From a virus (taxonomy: Duplodnaviria; Caudoviricetes), in IMG/VR virus record IMGVR_UViG_3300033076_000615, positions 1 through 29,207 of that record: 29,207 nt of DNA. One strand, given 5' to 3'. Every line of letters starts with the position of its first letter. Position 1 is the first letter of the stretch. A model generated the notes under the pieces. That model worked only from the letters and a program-made list of their open reading frames with translations, ran no database searches and was not told the DNA's origin. Positions 6,513 through 28,039 of the stretch are shown one piece after another. Made by a program: the position numbers and the translations under genes.

Positions 6513-6817
6513 AACTGAAACCCGGCAAATACGTGCAGCGCGATGGCGGCATTGCGACTGTGGCGGCGGTGGATGAGAGACGAGACATTTTTCCTGCAGT
6601 TGGCTGGAACTCTCGGGGCATGCACCGTTCTTGGAATCTTGACGGGAGCTATTACCAGTCACCAACTATTGATGAGAACGACCTCATCCGCGAACACTGC
6701 GAGCCGCGTGAGTTTTGGATTGCCATTCGCAACTCAGACGGCCATGCAGCAGTTATAAGTGACGGCAATGTAAATGATGAATGGTCTGCTATCCGAGTTC
6801 GTGAGGTGATCGAATGA
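6509..6817 (+). CDS. hypothetical protein
   Basis: 102 aa, translationally coupled; GKYVQRDG motif. Confidence 0.75.
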   Translation: MKLKPGKYVQRDGGIATVAAVDERRDIFPAVGWNSRGMHRSWNLDGSYYQSPTIDENDLIREHCEPREFWIAIRNSDGHAAVISDGNVNDEWSAIRVREVIE

Positions 6818-7260
6818 GCCGTCTAATCGAAGACGTCCGCAAGTTCATGGAGTCGGCAGATTGCACCGTTGACCGCCACAATCCGAAACAGGCCAGCCTC
6901 TACCTGGGACTCGTGGCCGAAGAGCTATCTGAGGCTATTGAGGCCATCGGAACAGCGCCCACTGCTGCTCGGATGATCAGCGCATTGGCTGATGCGCTAA
7001 AGCAGCATGACGGTTCGCAGCTTGCCGATATGACGCATGAGCAGCGCACGGGCTTGTTTGACGCTGCGCTTGACATTGCATGGGTTGCTATCGGCCTTGC
7101 TTACAGCATCGGCGCTGATCCGGAATGCGGCGCAATTGAGGTGGCGCGCAGCAACCTGAGCAAGATCGGCGCTAGCGGCAAGATGGAGCGCGATGGCAAC
7201 GGCAAGGTCATCAAGGGCAGGAACTACAGCCCGCCGAACTTGGCCCCGCTGGTCAGCTAA
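6814..7260 (+). CDS. MazG-like / PRA-PH family NTP pyrophosphohydrolase
   Basis: EELSE, DAALDIAWV, EVARSNLSK, RDGNGKVIKGRNYSPPNL motifs. Confidence 0.88.
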   Translation: MSRLIEDVRKFMESADCTVDRHNPKQASLYLGLVAEELSEAIEAIGTAPTAARMISALADALKQHDGSQLADMTHEQRTGLFDAALDIAWVAIGLAYSIGADPECGAIEVARSNLSKIGASGKMERDGNGKVIKGRNYSPPNLAPLVS

Positions 7261-7342: not shown

Positions 7343-8641
7343 ATGCGCAAATATCATCCAACGCGTAATGTTTACGAAGCCTCAATTGAGCGGCTTGACT
7401 TTGTCTTTGCCAATTTTGACCGCATCTATCTGTCTTTCAGCGGCGGCAAGGACTCCGGCGTGATGTTGAATCTCACGCTTGATTACATGCGTAAGCGCGG
7501 CATCACAAGGAGGATTGGCGTTCAGATTTTGGACAACGAGGCAAACTATGACCTCTCGCTAGAGTTTATGCACAGCATTCTTGAGAAGAACTTGGACTTG
7601 CTTGACGTTTACTGGTGCTGCCTCCCGATCACGTTGCCATGCACTGTCAGTGCATACGCGATTGAGTGGCAATGCTGGGGCAATCGGGACAAAGAGCGGT
7701 GGATCCGGCCTATGGATAGGCGTCCATACATCGTCAACTTTGAAAATCATCCGTTCCCATTCTTTGAAGAAGACATGAGCTATGACCATTTTTGGGATGG
7801 CTTTGCGGAGTGGTATAGCCAGGGCAAGCCGTGCGCTAACTTGATCGGCATTCGCACGGCAGAAAGCCTCAACCGCTTCCGCGCCATCATGAATGAGCAG
7901 AAGGAGACGATGGGCGGCATGATGTGGACTAAGAAGAACACAGCGCATACCTACAATGTCTATCCGATTTACGACTGGCGCACGGAGGACATTTGGACTG
8001 CTAACGCCAAGTTTGAATGGGAATACAACAAGCTGTATGACATTTTTTACAAAGCTGGCGTGCCCGTTCACAAGATGCGTGTTGCCTCTCCTTTCATGAG
8101 CGAATCTAAGTCAAGCCTCAATTTGTATCGTGTCATTGACGGTCACACCTGGGCAAAGCTGTGTGCGCGTGTGCAAGGGGCAAACTTCATTGCTCACTAC
8201 GGTAAGCAGCTTGGCTACAAGAGCCTGAAATTGCCTCCGAATCACACTTGGAAGTCTTTTACCAAGTTTCTTTTAGCGACTCTGCCAAAAGAGGTGTCGG
8301 ACAATTTTAAGATGCGCTTCATCCAATCATTCCGCTATTGGGGGCGGGTGGGGCGCGGACTCCCCGAAGAGATTATCCAGGAGATGCGCAACTCTGGCGT
8401 GAGGTTCAAGGAGAACGGCAAGACCGCGCACGGCGGGCAGACTCTGACCCGCGTGCGTATGCAGCATTTCCCGGATCATGTTGACTTTCTTTCGTGCCAC
8501 AACAGTATGGTTGCTAGCTGGAAACGTTTTGCCATTACCATTTTGAAGAACGATCACACTTGTAAATATATGGGCCTTGCGCCCACAAAAGAGCAGGCGC
8601 AGCGGCAACGCGCCATCATGGAAAAATACAAAAAACTGTAA
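7343..8641 (+). CDS. ibrA: PAPS-reductase-like PP-loop protein with DUF3440 (IbrA/YbdN-like)
   Basis: LSFSGGKDSG PP-loop, IGIRTAESLNR, YPIYDWRTEDIW, MRVASPF, ARVQGANF, ILKND motifs; AAGGAG RBS before ATG 7343. Confidence 0.9.
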   Translation: MRKYHPTRNVYEASIERLDFVFANFDRIYLSFSGGKDSGVMLNLTLDYMRKRGITRRIGVQILDNEANYDLSLEFMHSILEKNLDLLDVYWCCLPITLPCTVSAYAIEWQCWGNRDKERWIRPMDRRPYIVNFENHPFPFFEEDMSYDHFWDGFAEWYSQGKPCANLIGIRTAESLNRFRAIMNEQKETMGGMMWTKKNTAHTYNVYPIYDWRTEDIWTANAKFEWEYNKLYDIFYKAGVPVHKMRVASPFMSESKSSLNLYRVIDGHTWAKLCARVQGANFIAHYGKQLGYKSLKLPPNHTWKSFTKFLLATLPKEVSDNFKMRFIQSFRYWGRVGRGLPEEIIQEMRNSGVRFKENGKTAHGGQTLTRVRMQHFPDHVDFLSCHNSMVASWKRFAITILKNDHTCKYMGLAPTKEQAQRQRAIMEKYKKL

Positions 8642-8651
8642 GGAGCTTACG

Positions 8652-9578
8652 ATGAAGATTGTAAAAATCAGCGACATTAAAGGCACAGAGCGCGAAGTGC
8701 ATTGCCCGAAAGGCGGTTTTGTATCTAACCGCATTTTGCTTGAGCAGGATGGCATGGGCTACGGAATGACCAAAACGGTCATTCCGCCGAATGGGCCGCA
8801 GCATTGGCACTACAAAAATCATTTGGAATCGTGCTACTGCGTAAGTGGTCGCGGCATTTTGACCAATCTCGCCACTGGCGAGAAACATAACATTGAGCCT
8901 GACACGACTTATGTGCTGGACAAACACGATGACCATACGTTTGAGGCGCTGGAAACCGTCACGCTAATCTGCGCCTTTAACCCGCCGCTTACTGGGCGCG
9001 AAGTGCATCAGGCGGATGGCAGCTATGCCGTCAAGGATTCCGGATTTAAGTCCCCGGTTTACAACGTCAAGCGCGTGCCTATCGGCAAGGTGAAGGCCAA
9101 CGACTACAACCCCAACAGTGTTGCGCCGCCTGAAATGGCGCTTTTGGAAACGTCAATTTGGGAGGACGGCTACACACAGCCAATCGTGACCTTCTACGAC
9201 GGCGCTAACGACACTTACATTGTGGTTGACGGCTTTCACCGCTACAGCACGATCCTAAACAGCGCCAGGATTCGAGAGCGTGAGCAGGGTCACTTGCCGA
9301 TTGTCGTCATTGACAAAGAGATTGGCGACCGCATGGCTTCAACCATTCGCCATAACCGTGCGCGCGGCTCTCACAATATTGAATTGATGAGCAACATCGT
9401 TGCCGAGCTTGTTGAAATGGGCAAGGGCGACCGCTGGATTTGCGAACACATTGGCATGAGCGCCGATGAGCTTTTGCGGCTAAAGCAGATTACCGGCGTC
9501 GCCGCTCTGTTTGCGAATCGTGATTTTTCCAAAAGCTGGGATGCCGAAGCCGGATGGGATGAGCGCGACGATGAATAG
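8652..9578 (+). CDS. fusion of an ectoine synthase (EctC)-like cupin and a ParB/Srx-like IbrB/YbdM domain
   Basis: First ~125 aa: SNRILLEQDGMG, HYKNHLESCYC.SGRG, YVLDKHDDH, FNPPLTGREVH..DGSY (EctC signatures). C-terminal part: ANDYNPNSVAPPEM, GYTQPIV, VVDGFHR, ASTIRHNRARGSH (IbrB). AAGGAG RBS. Confidence 0.9.
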   Translation: MKIVKISDIKGTEREVHCPKGGFVSNRILLEQDGMGYGMTKTVIPPNGPQHWHYKNHLESCYCVSGRGILTNLATGEKHNIEPDTTYVLDKHDDHTFEALETVTLICAFNPPLTGREVHQADGSYAVKDSGFKSPVYNVKRVPIGKVKANDYNPNSVAPPEMALLETSIWEDGYTQPIVTFYDGANDTYIVVDGFHRYSTILNSARIREREQGHLPIVVIDKEIGDRMASTIRHNRARGSHNIELMSNIVAELVEMGKGDRWICEHIGMSADELLRLKQITGVAALFANRDFSKSWDAEAGWDERDDE

Positions 9579-9990
9579 GATTTATCACCCGTGGCACAAA
9601 TGGGAGTGCTACAAAGCAGGTTTCTACTCATCGTCGCCGCCAGCGGGAATGACGGCAGATGATGCCAGGGAGGAATACGCAATATTCCTTTCTGACTTGC
9701 CACGGTTTAAGGATGCAATGCATCGTGTTGTTAGGAGCTGGCCGCACTCTTGCGACCAGTTCCTATCTAACGAACACATCAACCGCATTGCGTGGCTAGG
9801 CCAATCATCCATGTGTATTGAAACCGGAGTTTCAAGCGTTTTCCGAGGTGGGTTCCGCCTGTTAACACCGGGGCAGCAATTGGCCGCTAATGCCGCTGCA
9901 GAATATCATCTTAAAAAATGGTTAAAGGGGAAAGGCGATGAAGCGAGTGGAGAGATACATCAATGCATGGATGCAATGCGGTTATTCTGA
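9571..9990 (+). CDS. conserved hypothetical protein of the IbrAB-like cassette
   Basis: RIYHPWHKWECYKAGFY...NRIAWLGQ; overlaps the upstream stop codon. Confidence 0.8.
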   Translation: MNRIYHPWHKWECYKAGFYSSSPPAGMTADDAREEYAIFLSDLPRFKDAMHRVVRSWPHSCDQFLSNEHINRIAWLGQSSMCIETGVSSVFRGGFRLLTPGQQLAANAAAEYHLKKWLKGKGDEASGEIHQCMDAMRLF

Positions 9991-10189
9991 CGATATTCCT
10001 GATGAGGTTCCCAACGAGCTAATGCAGCTTGGGATAGCTCCATCATACAAAGCAATAGCAATCGCAATACTGAAAAACGATATTTATTTTCATTCACTAG
10101 GATTTCCCGCAACTCCTACGCCTTGGTATTACGCGCTCAAGAGCGTCCAATTCAAAGACGAGAAAAAGCAATACGAACTTTTTTTGTAG
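9938..10189 (+). CDS. stand-alone DUF3440 C-terminal-like protein
   Basis: YINAW..CGYSDDIPDEVP...APSYKAIAIAILKND resembles the C-terminus of 7343-8641 (FPDHV...ASWKRFAITILKND). Confidence 0.75.
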   Translation: MKRVERYINAWMQCGYSDDIPDEVPNELMQLGIAPSYKAIAIAILKNDIYFHSLGFPATPTPWYYALKSVQFKDEKKQYELFL

Positions 10190-15031: not shown

Positions 15032-17791
15032 TCAGTTCTTGTTAATCAGCGCGCCAATCACCGCCTGCTTCGGCAGCGGCGGGAATCCGGTAAGCCGCAG
15101 CGTCACGGCGTTTCCAAAGGTTCGAGGCACGAAGATGATGCGCCCCGTCAGCGTATGCACTGCGCCTGCGAACTTATTGGACGCATTGAGTGGCGTTGCC
15201 AAACCATAGTCCTGCCACGCCGCCGTGCGAGTGATGGTGTCAATGACCAAGAAGTTGCCGGTTCCAGCAGGCGCAGCGGTCACCGCCGCCGCGTAAATCT
15301 TGCCATCCGGCCCAATCTTGGACGATATGGTGTATCCCTCGCCGGTGAGCGTGCCAAGTGCCGTCATGTTCAGTCCAAACGTCTCAAACGTTGCCTTACC
15401 GTAAGGACTCACGCTCGTATCGCTGGGGTCAATGACCAACACATTGCGAGCAGAACGTGGCAAAACGTAAATGCGGCCATCCGCGCCAAGTTGCGGGAAT
15501 GACCACTTGATGCCAGTGGAGCCCGCATTGCTGCCCGCATCCAAGTCCACGCCAAAGTTCGTGCGCCACGCCTGGTTGTAAGTCGGGGACAGCGGGTTGG
15601 TGTCAATCACCAGCGAATCAGACGCGCCGCGTGGGCCGCAGTAGATTTTCCCATTCGGGTGCAGAGCCGCGCCGACCCACTTGCTGATCCCAACGAGGTT
15701 CAAGCCAAAGTTGGTCAATTCCAGTTTTTGCGCGTCCGCCGCGAACACGTCCATGATGAGGACTTTCTCAACGTCATACGGGATGGCGTAAATCTTGCCA
15801 TCCATGCCAATAACGCAGGAATGCCACTTTTGCACGAGCAGCGGGTCACCAGTGGGCAGCAATGCACCGCCAGTGCCAGCCGTCAAAGGCACGCCCGTTG
15901 CGCCGGTTTCACGGTCACGCGCGCCGCCGTAATCCGTTTGAATGGCAGTTCCGTAGATCGAGCCGGTCGTGTTGCTCGGGTCGATCTTGAGGATGGTCGT
16001 CGCGTTAGTTCGCGGGAAGGCGTAGATGCAGCCGTCGCCTGCCAGCACGCCGCCCTGATACTTCTGCGGGTCACTGTTGAGGGTCAGCCCCAATGTGCTG
16101 AGTGCCGCCGTCGGGAAATCGCTATCTGGGTCTGTGTCTTTAATGACCAAGAACGATTGCGAGCTGGCAGGGATGCAGTAGTTGTAGCCGTTGGGATGCG
16201 CGACCGAACCGAACCACTTGGTATTGCCGTTCGCACCGCCGTCAATAAAGGCGCGCAGATCGGTATGAAAGGCTTGACCAGCGCCCGCGTTGCCAGCGGG
16301 GTCAACAATCAGAATGTCCTGACCGGCCTGGTTGGAGTCGCAAGGGCATCCGTAAATCAAGCTCTTGTGGAACGTTGCGCCAGACCACTTGTTATTGGTC
16401 GTCAGCGAATTGACGATGGTCGGCGTGCGAACGTCATACACGTTCATGGAAGTGCGCGTTGCCGTGCCGTTGGGGTCTGCGGTGGTATCCAACGGGTCAA
16501 TGACGAGAAAATCAGTCGCATTGCCGGGGATGCAGTAGATTTTCCGGTTCATCATGACGATGGCTCGCCACTTGCTGTTGCCGGTTAGCGTTGCGCCTAG
16601 CGCTGAGCGAACGGCAGTCTGTGCGACGGTATCAATCACCAGCACATCGGTTGCGTTGAATGGACAGGCGTAAATCTTCGTCCCATAGACCGTTGCACGA
16701 ATCCACTTGCTGGAATCAGAGAGCGTCAGACCATAGGTCGGGAGCGTTGCCGTGAGCGCCGAAAAGTTCACAAGCAGCACGGACGTGGCTACGAACGGCA
16801 TCGCGTAAACGCCAGTCCCCACGCACACCATGCCCGTCCATTTCGCCGTGTTGTTGAAGGCCGTGGCAGTCAGCCCAAGCTGCGCTGCGGTGTAGACGTT
16901 TGCCGTGTTGTTGGGCGGATCAATCACCAGCATCGTGGTGGAGTTGTAAGGCGCGCAGAAAATGCGCCCATCTGGCGTCCGCACGCCGCCATCCCACTTT
17001 GCAGCGGCAGAGAGCGCCGCCGTAGCAAGGCCGAAGGTTTCACGGGTCGCCGTCAGCGCAATCGTATCAATCACCAGGATGTCGGTTGCGGTGTAGGGGA
17101 TGCAGTAAATCTTGCCATCCAGGCCCAATACGCCACCGCGCCACTTGTTCGTGCCAGACAAGTCAATGCCAAAGTTGGTCTGATACGCAATGCCGGTGTC
17201 TGGATTGTGAATCAGGACGGTTGTCGCATCGTATGGCACATGGAAATGCAGTCCATTGGCTCGAATGACTCCGCGCCAACGCTCAGTGACGTTGGGCGAA
17301 TGAACAATTGGCTGCTGAAACGAGGTGATCTTGACGGATGCCGCGAAGTTTCCGGACGACGATTCACGTCCTAGCCGCAATGCCTGCACTGTCGCCGACA
17401 GATAGCCAGACACGGCTGCCTGAGCGGCAGTTGCCGCCTGTTCAGTTACCGCATCAATCGCGCCAGCAACTGCTGCGTCAATCGCAATTTGAGACGTGTC
17501 AACTACAAAAGACAAAGCCCCGTTTACGACTTCATACACAATCTCATGCCCGCTGCGAGTTTCATCCACCGTGACAATAATGGTTGCGCCTTCCAGCAAA
17601 TTGGGCAGCGCAGCCACAGCATCTGCTCTGCTCTGAAAAATGCTGAATTCTTTTTCCGCATTGATGTATGTCTTTAGCCGCAGCGCAGTCAGTTTGCGAG
17701 TGCTCTGCGCCTCACTGCTGTAAATCGGGATGGAGTCCCGATCCGTGATCGTTACAATTTCATTCAGTTGGTTAATATCAGGCACGATCAA
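15032..17791 (-). CDS. large tail/receptor-binding protein with 14 beta-propeller-like repeats
   Basis: 919 aa; repeats of KWxGxVxxxDGKIYxxPxxAxxVLVID; occupies the tailspike position before the lysis genes. Confidence 0.75.
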   Translation of the reverse strand: MIVPDINQLNEIVTITDRDSIPIYSSEAQSTRKLTALRLKTYINAEKEFSIFQSRADAVAALPNLLEGATIIVTVDETRSGHEIVYEVVNGALSFVVDTSQIAIDAAVAGAIDAVTEQAATAAQAAVSGYLSATVQALRLGRESSSGNFAASVKITSFQQPIVHSPNVTERWRGVIRANGLHFHVPYDATTVLIHNPDTGIAYQTNFGIDLSGTNKWRGGVLGLDGKIYCIPYTATDILVIDTIALTATRETFGLATAALSAAAKWDGGVRTPDGRIFCAPYNSTTMLVIDPPNNTANVYTAAQLGLTATAFNNTAKWTGMVCVGTGVYAMPFVATSVLLVNFSALTATLPTYGLTLSDSSKWIRATVYGTKIYACPFNATDVLVIDTVAQTAVRSALGATLTGNSKWRAIVMMNRKIYCIPGNATDFLVIDPLDTTADPNGTATRTSMNVYDVRTPTIVNSLTTNNKWSGATFHKSLIYGCPCDSNQAGQDILIVDPAGNAGAGQAFHTDLRAFIDGGANGNTKWFGSVAHPNGYNYCIPASSQSFLVIKDTDPDSDFPTAALSTLGLTLNSDPQKYQGGVLAGDGCIYAFPRTNATTILKIDPSNTTGSIYGTAIQTDYGGARDRETGATGVPLTAGTGGALLPTGDPLLVQKWHSCVIGMDGKIYAIPYDVEKVLIMDVFAADAQKLELTNFGLNLVGISKWVGAALHPNGKIYCGPRGASDSLVIDTNPLSPTYNQAWRTNFGVDLDAGSNAGSTGIKWSFPQLGADGRIYVLPRSARNVLVIDPSDTSVSPYGKATFETFGLNMTALGTLTGEGYTISSKIGPDGKIYAAAVTAAPAGTGNFLVIDTITRTAAWQDYGLATPLNASNKFAGAVHTLTGRIIFVPRTFGNAVTLRLTGFPPLPKQAVIGALINKN

Positions 17792-21702: not shown

Positions 21703-22368
21703 TTAGAAACCACCAAAGCCAGCGAACAAGCCGCCAAGCCCAACGGCCTGATTGAAGAGCTGTCCCTGCCGCGCGCCCTGCGCGAGCTGTCCGCCAGCAA
21801 GCGCCGCGCCCTGCTGGCCTAATAGCCCTGCAATGTTTGCGGATGCGGCGCTACCCTGCGCGCCTGTCTGCGTTGCCGCATTAAGACCCGTGTTGGTCAA
21901 GCCGCCCAATCGGTTAAACTGCTCACCTACAAACTGATTCAGCAAGCTAGGCCGGAACTGAGCGAGTGCGCCTTGGACGTTCCCGCCTCGCAATCCGCCT
22001 GTGGCCGATGCGTTCTGCAAGATGGCGTTTTCGCCCTGCCTGAATAGGGCCTGAAATGCAGGAGAGCTTTCAAGAGCGGCATATGCCTGCTGCTGCTGGC
22101 CAGTGCCATTTAGCCCGAGCAATGCGCCCTGCTGGCCGAATGCCTGCTGCCCGCCCTGAGCGTATGGCGCTAGCAGGGCCTGGATGGCGTCAAACTGACG
22201 GCGCTGCTCGTTGATGCCAGCCTGTGCGGCCCCAGACTGTGTTTGCGCTGCCTGCTGCGCTGCGTTTGCGGCCTGGTTTGCGCCAGTGACTTCGCCAAAA
22301 AGGTTAGTGACCGGATCAATCAGCAATCCGCCCGCAATCTCTTTGCCTACATCTGCGATGAATCCCAT
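21703..22368 (-). CDS. DNA transfer protein (P22 gp7-like)
   Basis: QGENAILQNASATGGLRGGNVQGALAQF motif. Confidence 0.85.
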   Translation of the reverse strand: MGFIADVGKEIAGGLLIDPVTNLFGEVTGANQAANAAQQAAQTQSGAAQAGINEQRRQFDAIQALLAPYAQGGQQAFGQQGALLGLNGTGQQQQAYAALESSPAFQALFRQGENAILQNASATGGLRGGNVQGALAQFRPSLLNQFVGEQFNRLGGLTNTGLNAATQTGAQGSAASANIAGLLGQQGAALAGGQLAQGARQGQLFNQAVGLGGLFAGFGGF

Positions 22369-22817
22369 GTCTTACTCCAATCGCTTCGGGTCAGTCCGAG
22401 AATGTGAACCCCGATGAGTTTGCCGTCTTTCAGGCATGCATCAGGCTTGTAACCTTCTCGCTTGAATCCGATCTTCTGGCAGTAATTGACTGCCGTAGGA
22501 ATGGAGGACATCACCTGTGCGGTTAAGCGGCTCACGCGCAGGTCAGCAAACATCTGTTCAACGAATAGTAACCCAAGTTTGCGTGCATAGGGTAATGCGG
22601 AGGGCCATAGCAGCGCATGAACGTCGCGCTCAATGCTGGACACTGGCAGCGCCAAGAATCCGCCAACTAAACGGTCGTTCAAGTATGCGCCCCAATAGCG
22701 CGCGTGAGGGCTTTCAACGGGAATCGCAGGGCGCAGATCATGGGCAATGCGCTGCACGCTTTCGGGAGCGTATAGGCTTGCAATGGTCAAGCTGTCTGCG
22801 ATGCGTTCAACGCGCAT
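22347..22817 (-). CDS. P22 gp14-like GNAT-fold protein (DUF2824-like)
   Basis: DVHALL, NYCQKIGFKREG...ILGLTR motifs; directly before gp7. Confidence 0.8.
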   Translation of the reverse strand: MRVERIADSLTIASLYAPESVQRIAHDLRPAIPVESPHARYWGAYLNDRLVGGFLALPVSSIERDVHALLWPSALPYARKLGLLFVEQMFADLRVSRLTAQVMSSIPTAVNYCQKIGFKREGYKPDACLKDGKLIGVHILGLTRSDWSKTWDSSQM

Positions 22818-23449
22818 TAGACGGCCACGGCAGTCACCGCAATCTGGCCGGTGAAGCTGAACGAGCCAGCGGCGGTCAAGTCGAGACTGAAAGTTCTCGC
22901 GTAAGGCGATGCGCCACCAGTGCCGCCAATCACGTCAACTAGGCCAGTGCCTGCATCCGTGCTAGTGGTCAAGAACCCGATTTTGTTGATGATGAACACG
23001 CCGCTGGTGAAGTCCGCGTTCACGAACGTTGCGCCGCCCGTCACCGTCTGATTGGTGCGCGTTGCGGCAGGGCTGATAGCCTTGATGATGGTGTTCGCCG
23101 CAGTGCCGCCCGATGCGCCATTCAAAAACACAGTGGCCGCAGTTACCGCCGTGGCGTTATTGCTGACGCCGATGAACCCAATGGCAGTGCCACCAAGACC
23201 AAACTCGCGGTCTAGGGAGTTATTCAGACCAGTATTGACGTAAGCGTTATGCCTGAAAATAAGCAGACAATCGTCATCGGCTTCAAAGTTTGTCAGCCAT
23301 TCGGGGAGCGAAACATCCCATTCAAAATGCCTTTTTTCTCCTTTGTTAAGCCGCAAAACATCTGCGCCAGTCACGACAACTTTGTCAAGGCGCTCTGCCT
23401 TCACAATAATAATTCCAAGACCTTCGCGACCCATTCCGTCATTTTCCAT
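22817..23449 (-). CDS. putative virion structural protein
   Basis: Thr/Gly-rich beta protein; AGGAGA RBS favours ATG 23449 (alternative 23455) over the track's 23800. Confidence 0.7.
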   Translation of the reverse strand: MENDGMGREGLGIIIVKAERLDKVVVTGADVLRLNKGEKRHFEWDVSLPEWLTNFEADDDCLLIFRHNAYVNTGLNNSLDREFGLGGTAIGFIGVSNNATAVTAATVFLNGASGGTAANTIIKAISPAATRTNQTVTGGATFVNADFTSGVFIINKIGFLTTSTDAGTGLVDVIGGTGGASPYARTFSLDLTAAGSFSFTGQIAVTAVAV

Positions 23450-23459
23450 CGTCATTCTC

Positions 23460-24389
23460 CTAAACCGTAAATATGATTCTACAACGGCCCAATGCACCGG
23501 CCCCGCCAGCCGCCAACGCAGGGCCACCGCGACCGCCACCTCCTGCCTGAGCGCCATCTGAGCCTGTAGATAGAGCGCCATCGCCGCCAAACTCTGCACC
23601 GCCAATGCGGCCTGATCCTGCGGCATTGCTGCCCGCGCCACCGCCGCCTGTCTGCCCTGATCCGCTACCGCCTGCGCGCACCGTGTTGCCGATGCCGCCC
23701 GTGGCAGAGCCAGTGCCAGCCGTTCCAGCGCCGACACCGCCAGCACCGCCCAATGCCCCGCCTTTTGCGAGACAGCCCTGCGCCGCGCTGGTGGGCGCAA
23801 CTACCGTGGTGCTGATCCATGAATCATTACCAACCGTGCCCGCTGCCGTGGCCGCCCCGCCTGCTGCCGTAGCGGCAACGCGAATGGTCAACGTGATGCC
23901 AGCAGCAAGCGATAGCGTGGTGCGCGCGAACTGAGCGCCAGCACCTCCACCACCACTGCCGACCGATCCGCCGCCACCGCCGCCGCCGCCGCCCCATGCA
24001 TCAAGGATGTAAGAGCCTGCGAAGGGTGTGACGAACGTAAACGTTCCCGCCGAGATCCAGCTAGGTTGCAAGCTCGCCACATCCGTCTGACGGGCAGAGT
24101 CAAACAACGTCAGCGGGGCAAGGCGCAGCACATCGGCAGCGTTGCGCGTGTCATTGGGCCGCACTGAAATGGCGGGGATGCGGTAAGCGTCGCCACGGCT
24201 TGCAGACTCCAGCAGCGTAAGGCCAGAGATGCGCAACGTTTCGCCGCGGTTGACGGCTTCCACAAGCCGCAGTTGAGCAATCCGCATCTGCTCACTACGG
24301 CGCAATGACTCGGGGATGATGAAAGTTGGCGCGCCTGATCCGCCACCGCCGCCAGGGTTGTAGTCCGGCGTATAGCGTGATCCGCTCAC
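23460..24389 (-). CDS. glycine-rich domain virion/tail protein
   Basis: WGGGGGGGGG..GGGGAG and GGAGALGRCRI glycine-rich domain pattern. Confidence 0.75.
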   Translation of the reverse strand: MSGSRYTPDYNPGGGGGSGAPTFIIPESLRRSEQMRIAQLRLVEAVNRGETLRISGLTLLESASRGDAYRIPAISVRPNDTRNAADVLRLAPLTLFDSARQTDVASLQPSWISAGTFTFVTPFAGSYILDAWGGGGGGGGGSVGSGGGGAGAQFARTTLSLAAGITLTIRVAATAAGGAATAAGTVGNDSWISTTVVAPTSAAQGCLAKGGALGGAGGVGAGTAGTGSATGGIGNTVRAGGSGSGQTGGGGAGSNAAGSGRIGGAEFGGDGALSTGSDGAQAGGGGRGGPALAAGGAGALGRCRIIFTV

Positions 24390-27553: not shown

Positions 27554-28039
27554 CTAAAGGGTGTTTCCTGCATGCATCTGTCGCTTCGCAGTTACATAAG
27601 CGTTATGCGCTGATACAGCATCGTCAAAATAGCCAAGGTATTTTTGCTTGCCGCCAATGTGAATCTTTGCCGAAAAGCCTGAACCGTTTACTGACACGCC
27701 AAGAAGCTTTGTTGAGTTTTGGCGATGCGGCTTGCGTTGGTTTTGCATGTTTTCGCAAAGGGAAACATCGCGCAGATTCTCAAAACGGTTGTTAGTTTTT
27801 GAGCCGTCAATATGGTCAATCACATTTTTTGGTTGCTCGCCAGTAACAAGCATCCAAACAATGCGATGAACCATTTCTAATCGGCCATCAACTCTAACTT
27901 GCAAATAACCGCTGGTGCATTGACAACCCACAACCGCACCAGCGGGGAATCTTCCAAACCTTCCAGCAGCAACCCTCCGAAGAAGGTTGCCAGTTTCTGG
28001 GCAGTAAGAAAAAAGCTCGCTGGCGCGGCTGGGGGTCAT
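27554..28039 (-). CDS. HNH homing endonuclease with AP2 domain
   Basis: VHRIVW, IDHIDGSKTNNRFENLR..S..EN..N, KYLGYFDDAVSAHNAY. Confidence 0.92.
   Translation of the reverse strand: MTPSRASELFSYCPETGNLLRRVAAGRFGRFPAGAVVGCQCTSGYLQVRVDGRLEMVHRIVWMLVTGEQPKNVIDHIDGSKTNNRFENLRDVSLCENMQNQRKPHRQNSTKLLGVSVNGSGFSAKIHIGGKQKYLGYFDDAVSAHNAYVTAKRQMHAGNTL

Follow-up and report, generated by a model that had tools for sequence, protein, structure and literature searches.

An EctC-type cupin fused to an IbrB domain in a phage cassette that may attach an ectoine-like ring to DNA

Why would a phage carry an enzyme of the ectoine synthase (EctC) type, and why in the same polypeptide as a ParB-like domain? The question is raised by a gene in IMG/VR virus record IMGVR_UViG_3300033076_000615 (Duplodnaviria; Caudoviricetes), of which positions 1 to 29,207 were analyzed and are called the window here. 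A preliminary description of this DNA had proposed that the cupin was recruited for a nucleic-acid or nucleotide modification rather than for osmoprotection. We consider it likely that the gene belongs to a cassette that makes an ectoine-like ring and attaches it to DNA, and not to the salt protection of a host.

The fusion gene and its phage setting

The source record is a virus contig, 79% complete, and the window encodes P22-type coat, head-closure, and ejection genes as judged by Pfam and PHROGs. The gene in question lies in a rightward early region, after ERF, NinB, SSB, and nucleotide pyrophosphohydrolase genes, where the following features were recognized.

7343-8641, + strand: IbrA/YbdN-type PP-loop enzyme, 432 aa (PAPS_reduct + DUF3440), by Pfam, PHROGs, and homologues
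8640-8645, + strand: AAGGAG, ribosome-binding-site-like, overlapping the IbrA stop, 6 nt 5' of the fusion ATG
8652-9578, + strand: fusion of an EctC-type cupin with IbrB, 308 aa, a single ORF
8652-9035, + strand: EctC-family cupin domain (aa 1-128), by Pfam, NCBIfam, and solved EctC structures
9045-9578, + strand: IbrB/YbdM ParB-Srx domain, then a helix-turn-helix predicted from sequence and an acidic tail; same reading frame as the cupin
9571-9990, + strand: 139-aa all-helical conserved partner, overlapping the fusion stop
9938-10189, + strand: mini-DUF3440, 83 aa, resembling the C-terminal segment of IbrA but without its Cys

Translation bore out the uninterrupted 308-aa reading frame that had been described at 8652-9578, with no internal stop. 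The ORF of IbrA is listed from 7193, but its homologues begin at the Met at 7343. IbrA, the fusion, the 139-aa gene, and mini-DUF3440 overlap or abut one another, and the GC content of the 7-10 kb region is 50-53% as compared with 55-60% in most flanking windows. Directly upstream of IbrA, at 6814-7260 (+ strand), there is the gene for the nucleotide pyrophosphohydrolase (PHROG 671), which is probably outside the cassette because a tblastn search found none in related loci.

The reported absence of ectA and ectB from the window was also corroborated; namely, no such family was found among the window ORFs scanned (30 by Pfam and 42 by PHROGs, with 164 ORFs listed), nor among 83 neighbour proteins scanned from the 249 neighbour clusters of relatives. 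Among those scanned neighbours of the relatives' cassettes, genes for helicase, primase, recombinase, SSB, and methylase are found nearby.

Elsewhere in the window, all on the minus strand, we noted four further items. The tail region encodes a repeat-rich protein of 919 aa (15032-17791) that had no Pfam or PHROG family match and probably serves as a tail spike or in receptor binding. An acetyltransferase-like gene lies in the structural module (22347-22817; PHROG 651, head morphogenesis, and PHROG 1249, acetyltransferase), and an HNH endonuclease gene (27554-28039) directly follows the major capsid gene. Two long ORFs overlap within 22817-24389; one of them (23460-24389) is glycine-rich and tail-fibre-like, and the other (22817-23800) probably has its true start later than listed.

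The cupin, the IbrB domain, and the cassette

The cupin belongs to the EctC family and is not merely a generic cupin: residues 1-128 matched Pfam Ectoine_synth with an E-value of 4.3e-44 and 150.3 bits (cut-off 27), while Cupin_2 reached 24 bits, under its cut-off. The domain also passed NCBIfam NF009806 for ectoine synthase (149.8; cut-off 128) and matched the solved EctC structures 5bxx (E 1e-26) and 5onm (E 8e-23). When its residues were numbered against P. lautus EctC (PMC6344544), whose iron ligands are given there as Glu57, Tyr84, and His92, the alignment proved the earlier reading correct in that E59, Y87, H95, R27, T42, Y54, and the FNPPLTGREVH lid are kept. The EctC ligand residues Ser23, Arg25, Thr40, Tyr52, and Phe106 and the C-terminal lid are all matched in the phage cupin. 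Indeed, E59, Y87, H95, S25, R27, T42, Y54, E117, and H119 are invariant in 194/194 distinct phage-type sequences, and F109 is kept in 193 of them.

The same alignment confirmed that Phe23 occupies the position of Trp21, the substrate piston of EctC, and it revealed further substitutions that had escaped the preliminary description (N38 to T40, I50 to W52, V59 to C61, and L94 to F97). Asn38 is the residue by which EctC contacts the substrate carboxylate. The marks of the phage clade are therefore F23, T40, K41, W52, C61, and F97. Position 23 is Phe in 176/194 sequences, a gap in 18/194, and Trp in none (0/194), and position 40 is Thr in 184/194 and Asn in 1/194. According to PMC6344544, 437 canonical and 145 orphan EctCs share a conserved Trp21, and the W21A variant of EctC retains 9.7% activity. 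In a tree of representatives taken from a profile search (the best 150 of 764 hits at E<=0.001), the phage type forms a 49-row clade with a support of 0.81; Trp is present within residues 16-24 in 0/49 rows of this clade versus 61/113 rows outside it. The Asn38 site is variable also in EctCs outside the phage clade, being His in 46/113.

These features suggest that the phage cupin is likely to resemble EctC in acting on a free small molecule, albeit without one defining EctC residue, and the substituted residues point to a substrate that has likely changed from that of EctC. W52 could compensate for the lost Trp, however, so that the replacement of Trp21 by Phe need not imply a new substrate. 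EctC itself is reported to cyclise glutamine to ADPC, a reaction that favours glutamine, and to hydrolyse homoectoine and DHMICA (PMC5924519). Outside the phage clade, EctC domains were seen in other fusions (P0121, P0143, P0189, P0199, P0262, P0269, P0177, and P0126), with ATP-grasp, formyltransferase, EctD, arylmalonate decarboxylase-like, and glyoxalase-like partners or as tandem double cupins; this variety suggests that EctC-type enzymes serve several non-ectoine pathways.

The remainder of the fusion had been assigned to an IbrB/YbdM ParB-Srx domain, and its IbrB/YbdM identity stands: the C-terminal part matched PHROG 2159 with an E-value of 2e-80 and shares 47.6% identity with E. coli YbdM across 164 aa. 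The Pfam ParB_N score (17.7) is under the cut-off of 26.3. The domain has the motifs NxYNPN, DGFHR, and RHNRARG, followed by the helix-turn-helix predicted from sequence. In profile comparison, it matched solved ParB (E 8e-4), Noc (E 0.012), and, weakly, the free-serine kinase SbnI (E 0.026).

The fusion is not a one-off assembly artefact. When 8000 candidates were scored in a cluster search and the best 120 were listed, 118 of the 119 other listed clusters covered 96-100% of the query at 73-83% identity. In a pattern scan of IMG/VR, 251/253 matches were confirmed, and four of 50,697 phage records match over 80% of the length, namely Gaia (two records), Nebkiss, and XCL1123. The fusion is nonetheless an optional and not the essential feature, with split genes being common: distinct ORFs were fused in 59 cases versus 29 unfused ones, the latter including truncated ORFs. 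As an annotation the EctC-ParB fusion is already known from Gaia gp104; no functional study of the fusion or the cassette was found in the literature searched, where an earlier computational mention is possible.

What is conserved is instead a unit of five parts, common to hundreds of phage sequences: IbrA (PP-loop/DUF3440), EctC, IbrB, the 139-aa helical protein, and mini-DUF3440. In the best 80 viral loci obtained with the whole fusion as a query, IbrA was present in 79/80, the 139-aa gene in 80/80, and mini-DUF3440 in 77/80, where every absence falls at a contig end and near-copies are frequent among the loci. When only the cupin served as the query, 23 viral loci were found, 22 with IbrB and 21 with IbrA. 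No family or fold match was found for the 139-aa protein, which is fused to IbrB or to mini-DUF3440 in some relatives; mini-DUF3440 as a separate gene was seen only in EctC-bearing cassettes. Among 210 distinct IbrA proteins, 105 are linked to EctC, 52 are accompanied by just IbrB and the 139-aa domain, and 53 by IbrB alone. The EctC-linked IbrAs constitute one side of a long branch (49/115 rows; SH-aLRT 100, length 0.88).

Several individual loci deserve mention. GIY-YIG-type endonuclease genes lie inside the cassette at L151:4510-5262 and L145:6890-7264, and in L151 a DegT aminotransferase and an NAD-dependent epimerase are encoded just upstream of IbrA. At L180:6704-7573, a second and different phage gene of the PAPS-reductase family follows just downstream of the cassette, as in a small cluster of loci. 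L142:7893-10308 is an EctC-less cassette in which IbrB is fused to the 139-aa domain and followed by IbrA; its contig is titled Thorarchaeota, and a sulfotransferase-like gene is nearby.

IbrA and its co-variation with EctD-like partners

IbrA of the window shares 31% identity with E. coli YbdN across 417 aa and contains SGGKDS, GxRxxESxxR, YPxxDW, and C407 in NDxxCK; SGGKDS, DxE, C93, GxRxxESxxR, and YPxxDW are shared by all IbrA types, and C407 nearly always. Its structural model (pLDDT 88) has a fold that matches CysH, CysD, and FAD synthase. These structural relatives adenylate sulfate or phosphate, not carboxylates. The match to DndC is weak (E 8e-7 over ~95 aa). A helix comprising residues 147-159, which bears Y147, F150, and W151 in this window, sits before the GxR strand in the model and was aligned by hhalign, in a low-confidence part, with the KVEP helix of CysH and the MKTE helix of CysD, both of which we take to line the substrate site.

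This helix varies with an optional partner of the cassette. In locus L170, an EctD-like dioxygenase gene, found among the 83 neighbour proteins scanned, lies between IbrA and EctC, and the fusion there also bears a probable methyltransferase insert. A search with an EctD-like query found four viral loci, all four holding the cassette, as L082 does too. TIGR02408 was the best family for 9/9 EctD-like proteins tested, with 2/9 above the cut-off and that of L170 below it, and WHSDFETWH, the core of the 17-aa EctD signature, is kept in most of these partners. No EctD match was found in the record of this window, the IbrA of which is of the Y/W type.

The EctD-linked IbrAs had D147, K148, and Y151 in 5/5 cases. 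In EctC-linked IbrAs without EctD, a status that covers 4-8 kb flanks of each locus, we found W151 in 103/103, Y147 in 102/103, and K148 in 0/103, and an EctD HMM run on all ORFs of L001-L315 gave matches only in L170 and L082. We then scanned for the D147-K148/Y151 motif only. The 20 matches comprised the five known loci, four cut by contig ends (two being the same contig), one non-IbrA, and ten new informative loci, and an EctD-like gene was present in 10/10 of the last, although three of these genes are partial, one is in two ORFs, and several loci are related to each other. In L363, EctD was recognized by eye from an N-terminal fragment of 49 aa, and L352:4866-5717 is the gene split as two ORFs. 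The combined count of 15/15 is partly circular because ten of the loci were chosen by the motif.

The EctD-linked IbrAs are scattered, with four changes on one tree (at least three forced) and seven on an IbrA tree made without residues 138-159, where supports are weak (0.6-0.98), and the EctDs are 24-56% identical in most pairs; scatter and divergence together suggest repeated gains. No column diagnostic of EctD presence was found in EctC, the 139-aa protein, or mini-DUF3440, and IbrB showed one weak Leu/Met bias. The probable methyltransferase was only seen alongside EctD (L170, L317, and L360). Cassettes with EctD and this probable class I enzyme are L170:3153-5500, L317:4498-6853, and P0016, where it either has a gene of its own or is placed as an insert between EctC and IbrB. 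EctD is reported to accept homoectoine (PMC6890836).

Since IbrA changes with EctD and EctC does not, IbrA likely acts downstream of EctC on the finished ring. A change that accompanies EctD is to be expected only in an enzyme acting on the hydroxylated product, which suggests the order of EctC, optional EctD and methyltransferase, and then IbrA. Beyond the annotation of Gaia, the present analysis adds the EctD link and the co-variation of IbrA.

A possible route to DNA, its rivals, and its relatives

In the reading we prefer, to which we would tentatively assign a probability of about 0.45, EctC turns a small metabolite into a ring that IbrA first adenylates and then, together with IbrB, couples to phage DNA. 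The cupin would bind iron and form an ectoine-like ring by cyclo-dehydration of a free molecule, as is suggested by the deep, lidded pocket that has been kept. N-gamma-acetyl-diaminobutyrate is probably not the substrate, because Trp21 and Asn38 are replaced and no ectA or ectB accompanies the cassette; candidates would be glutamine, which would give ADPC, and N-acetyl-ornithine, which would give homoectoine. The ring might be diversified by optional tailoring, with EctD for hydroxylation and the probable methyltransferase. Helix 147-151 of IbrA would bind the finished ring, to be adenylated as in the CysD and FAD-synthase relatives, and Cys407 may carry the activated ring before its transfer. 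IbrB, the 139-aa protein, and mini-DUF3440 would then bring this chemistry to DNA during replication, and the ring on phage DNA would be a protective modification.

The proposal that the cupin was recruited for a modification pathway thus holds insofar as it serves an IbrAB pathway rather than osmoprotection, in view of the single IbrA clade, IbrB in 22/23 loci, and the IbrA-EctD co-variation; the nucleic-acid target is a putative one. DNA appears to be the likeliest acceptor given the ParB/helix-turn-helix partner, the replication-region setting, the parallel with DndC/DndB, and the precedent of CmoY, a phage AMP-forming ligase reported to acylate a DNA base, with ParBc genes recurring in such loci (PMC12783734). 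Several points run counter to our reading: the structural relatives of IbrA act on sulfate or phosphate, helix 147-151 might instead be where EctD docks, 105 of the 210 distinct IbrAs occur in IbrAB without EctC, and ybdNM in E. coli is chromosomal and has been tied to citrate regulation (PMC9068703).

Alternatively, a nucleotide, RNA, or protein might receive the ring from IbrA, for host take-over or counter-defence, with IbrB as an NTPase, kinase, or regulator. The weak SbnI match, beside those to ParB and Noc, and the annotation of IbrAB as a prophage gene expression co-activator would be consistent with such an acceptor, but IbrB combines a ParB-like domain with a predicted helix-turn-helix, and the scanned neighbours place the cassette amid helicase, primase, recombinase, SSB, and methylase genes. 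We regard this alternative as unlikely.

Little different in standing, and if anything slightly less probable, is the idea that IbrA and IbrB act upstream in place of EctA and EctB, supplying an acyl-diamine to EctC and EctD, with a free ectoine-like solute or signal as the end product. This would account for the source of the EctC substrate without ectA/ectB, and the EctD-like proteins do retain the small-molecule signature. An upstream IbrA would nevertheless have no reason to change upon a gain of EctD two steps later, yet IbrA alone changes, and EctC is absent from most IbrAB loci. The near-invariant Y147 and W151 in the absence of EctD fit a pocket better than a dock for an absent partner.

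It is rather improbable that the cupin opens rings or cyclises a group already put on DNA by IbrA. While the hydrolysis of homoectoine and DHMICA and the glutamine-favouring ADPC reaction (PMC5924519) would suit the former and fusion to IbrB would tether the cupin near DNA, the deep pocket has a conserved lid, EctC is unchanged where EctD is present, and the cupin is often a separate gene.

An ordinary ectoine synthase acting as an auxiliary metabolic gene for osmoprotection, with its neighbours irrelevant, is very improbable despite the score above the NCBIfam cut-off and the ligand residues mostly kept, given the clade-wide loss of Trp21, the tie of the cupin to one IbrA clade, and EctA above cut-off in 0/5 cassette-holding MAGs, the last being a weak test with possible misbinning, MAG completeness not given, and no control genome over the cut-off.

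The closest known systems are Mycobacterium phage Gaia (gp103-107), Nebkiss, and Pseudoalteromonas phage XCL1123, which have the same cassette as the window. Gaia gp104, annotated as "ectoine synthase/ParB multidomain protein" after a "PAPS reductase", is 68% identical, a likeness known at the annotation level only, and the Gaia cassette includes an additional gene, unlike that of the window. XCL1123 has the EctC and IbrB domains as two genes instead of the fusion; its mini-DUF3440 gene is present but unannotated (L146:7282-7524). The pair in the window is a member of the IbrA/IbrB family, which in E. coli K-12 YbdN/YbdM (31% and 47.6% identical) likewise comprises adjacent PP-loop/DUF3440 and ParB-like proteins, but YbdN/YbdM lack the cupin and mini-DUF3440 and differ from the IbrA of the window at residues 147-151 and 251-254. 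IbrA/IbrB reportedly have a role in the activation of eib prophage genes, in work attributed to Sandt et al. 2002. As for EctC, including orphan EctC, the phage cupin shares the fold, iron triad, lid, and most ligand residues; it differs in Trp21 (Phe or absent), in Asn38 (mostly Thr), and in W52/C61/F97, and it lacks ectAB and is linked to IbrAB in phages. The EctD signature recurs in the optional partner of the relatives' cassettes.

Among DNA-modifying systems, the hypermodification by CmoA/CmoX/CmoY resembles our proposal in coupling a small molecule to DNA with ParBc nearby, although the DNA coupling is proposed in our case; CmoY is described as asparagine-synthetase-like and acting on a carboxymethyl handle from a methyltransferase homologue (PMC12783734), whereas the IbrA cassette has no handle enzyme of that kind. 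Dnd phosphorothioation shares the pairing of a PP-loop enzyme (DndC) with a member of the ParB superfamily (DndB; PMC10853773), but DndD, DndE, and a desulfurase are absent from the five-part cassette, with ectoine-type enzymes instead. None of the DndD, DndE, and cysteine desulfurase families was found among the 83 neighbour proteins scanned; a host desulfurase could substitute, which leaves sulfur chemistry possible for the cassette.

IbrA/IbrB pairs, annotated as "PAPS reductase + ParB", are carried by E. coli as well as by many phages, and no biochemical function of them was found in the literature searched. The EctC-linked branch offers a handle on IbrAB, namely a defined class of substrate and a switch of three residues from which a tailoring enzyme can be predicted, and Gaia, Nebkiss, and XCL1123 are cultured phages, the DNA of which is open to direct analysis. 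Either way, where viral genes of this cassette are called "ectoine synthase" or "PAPS reductase", they should not be tallied as genes for salt stress or sulfur assimilation. A ring on DNA, if true, would be a new modification chemistry derived from osmolyte enzymes. It is conceivable, though more doubtful than the reading itself, that IbrAB are unrecognised post-replicative DNA-modifying ligases with swappable payloads, of which ectoine-like, hydroxylated, or methylated rings would be those of the EctC branch and helix 147-151 the payload code; if so, this helix could predict the payloads of other IbrAB types including E. coli YbdNM.
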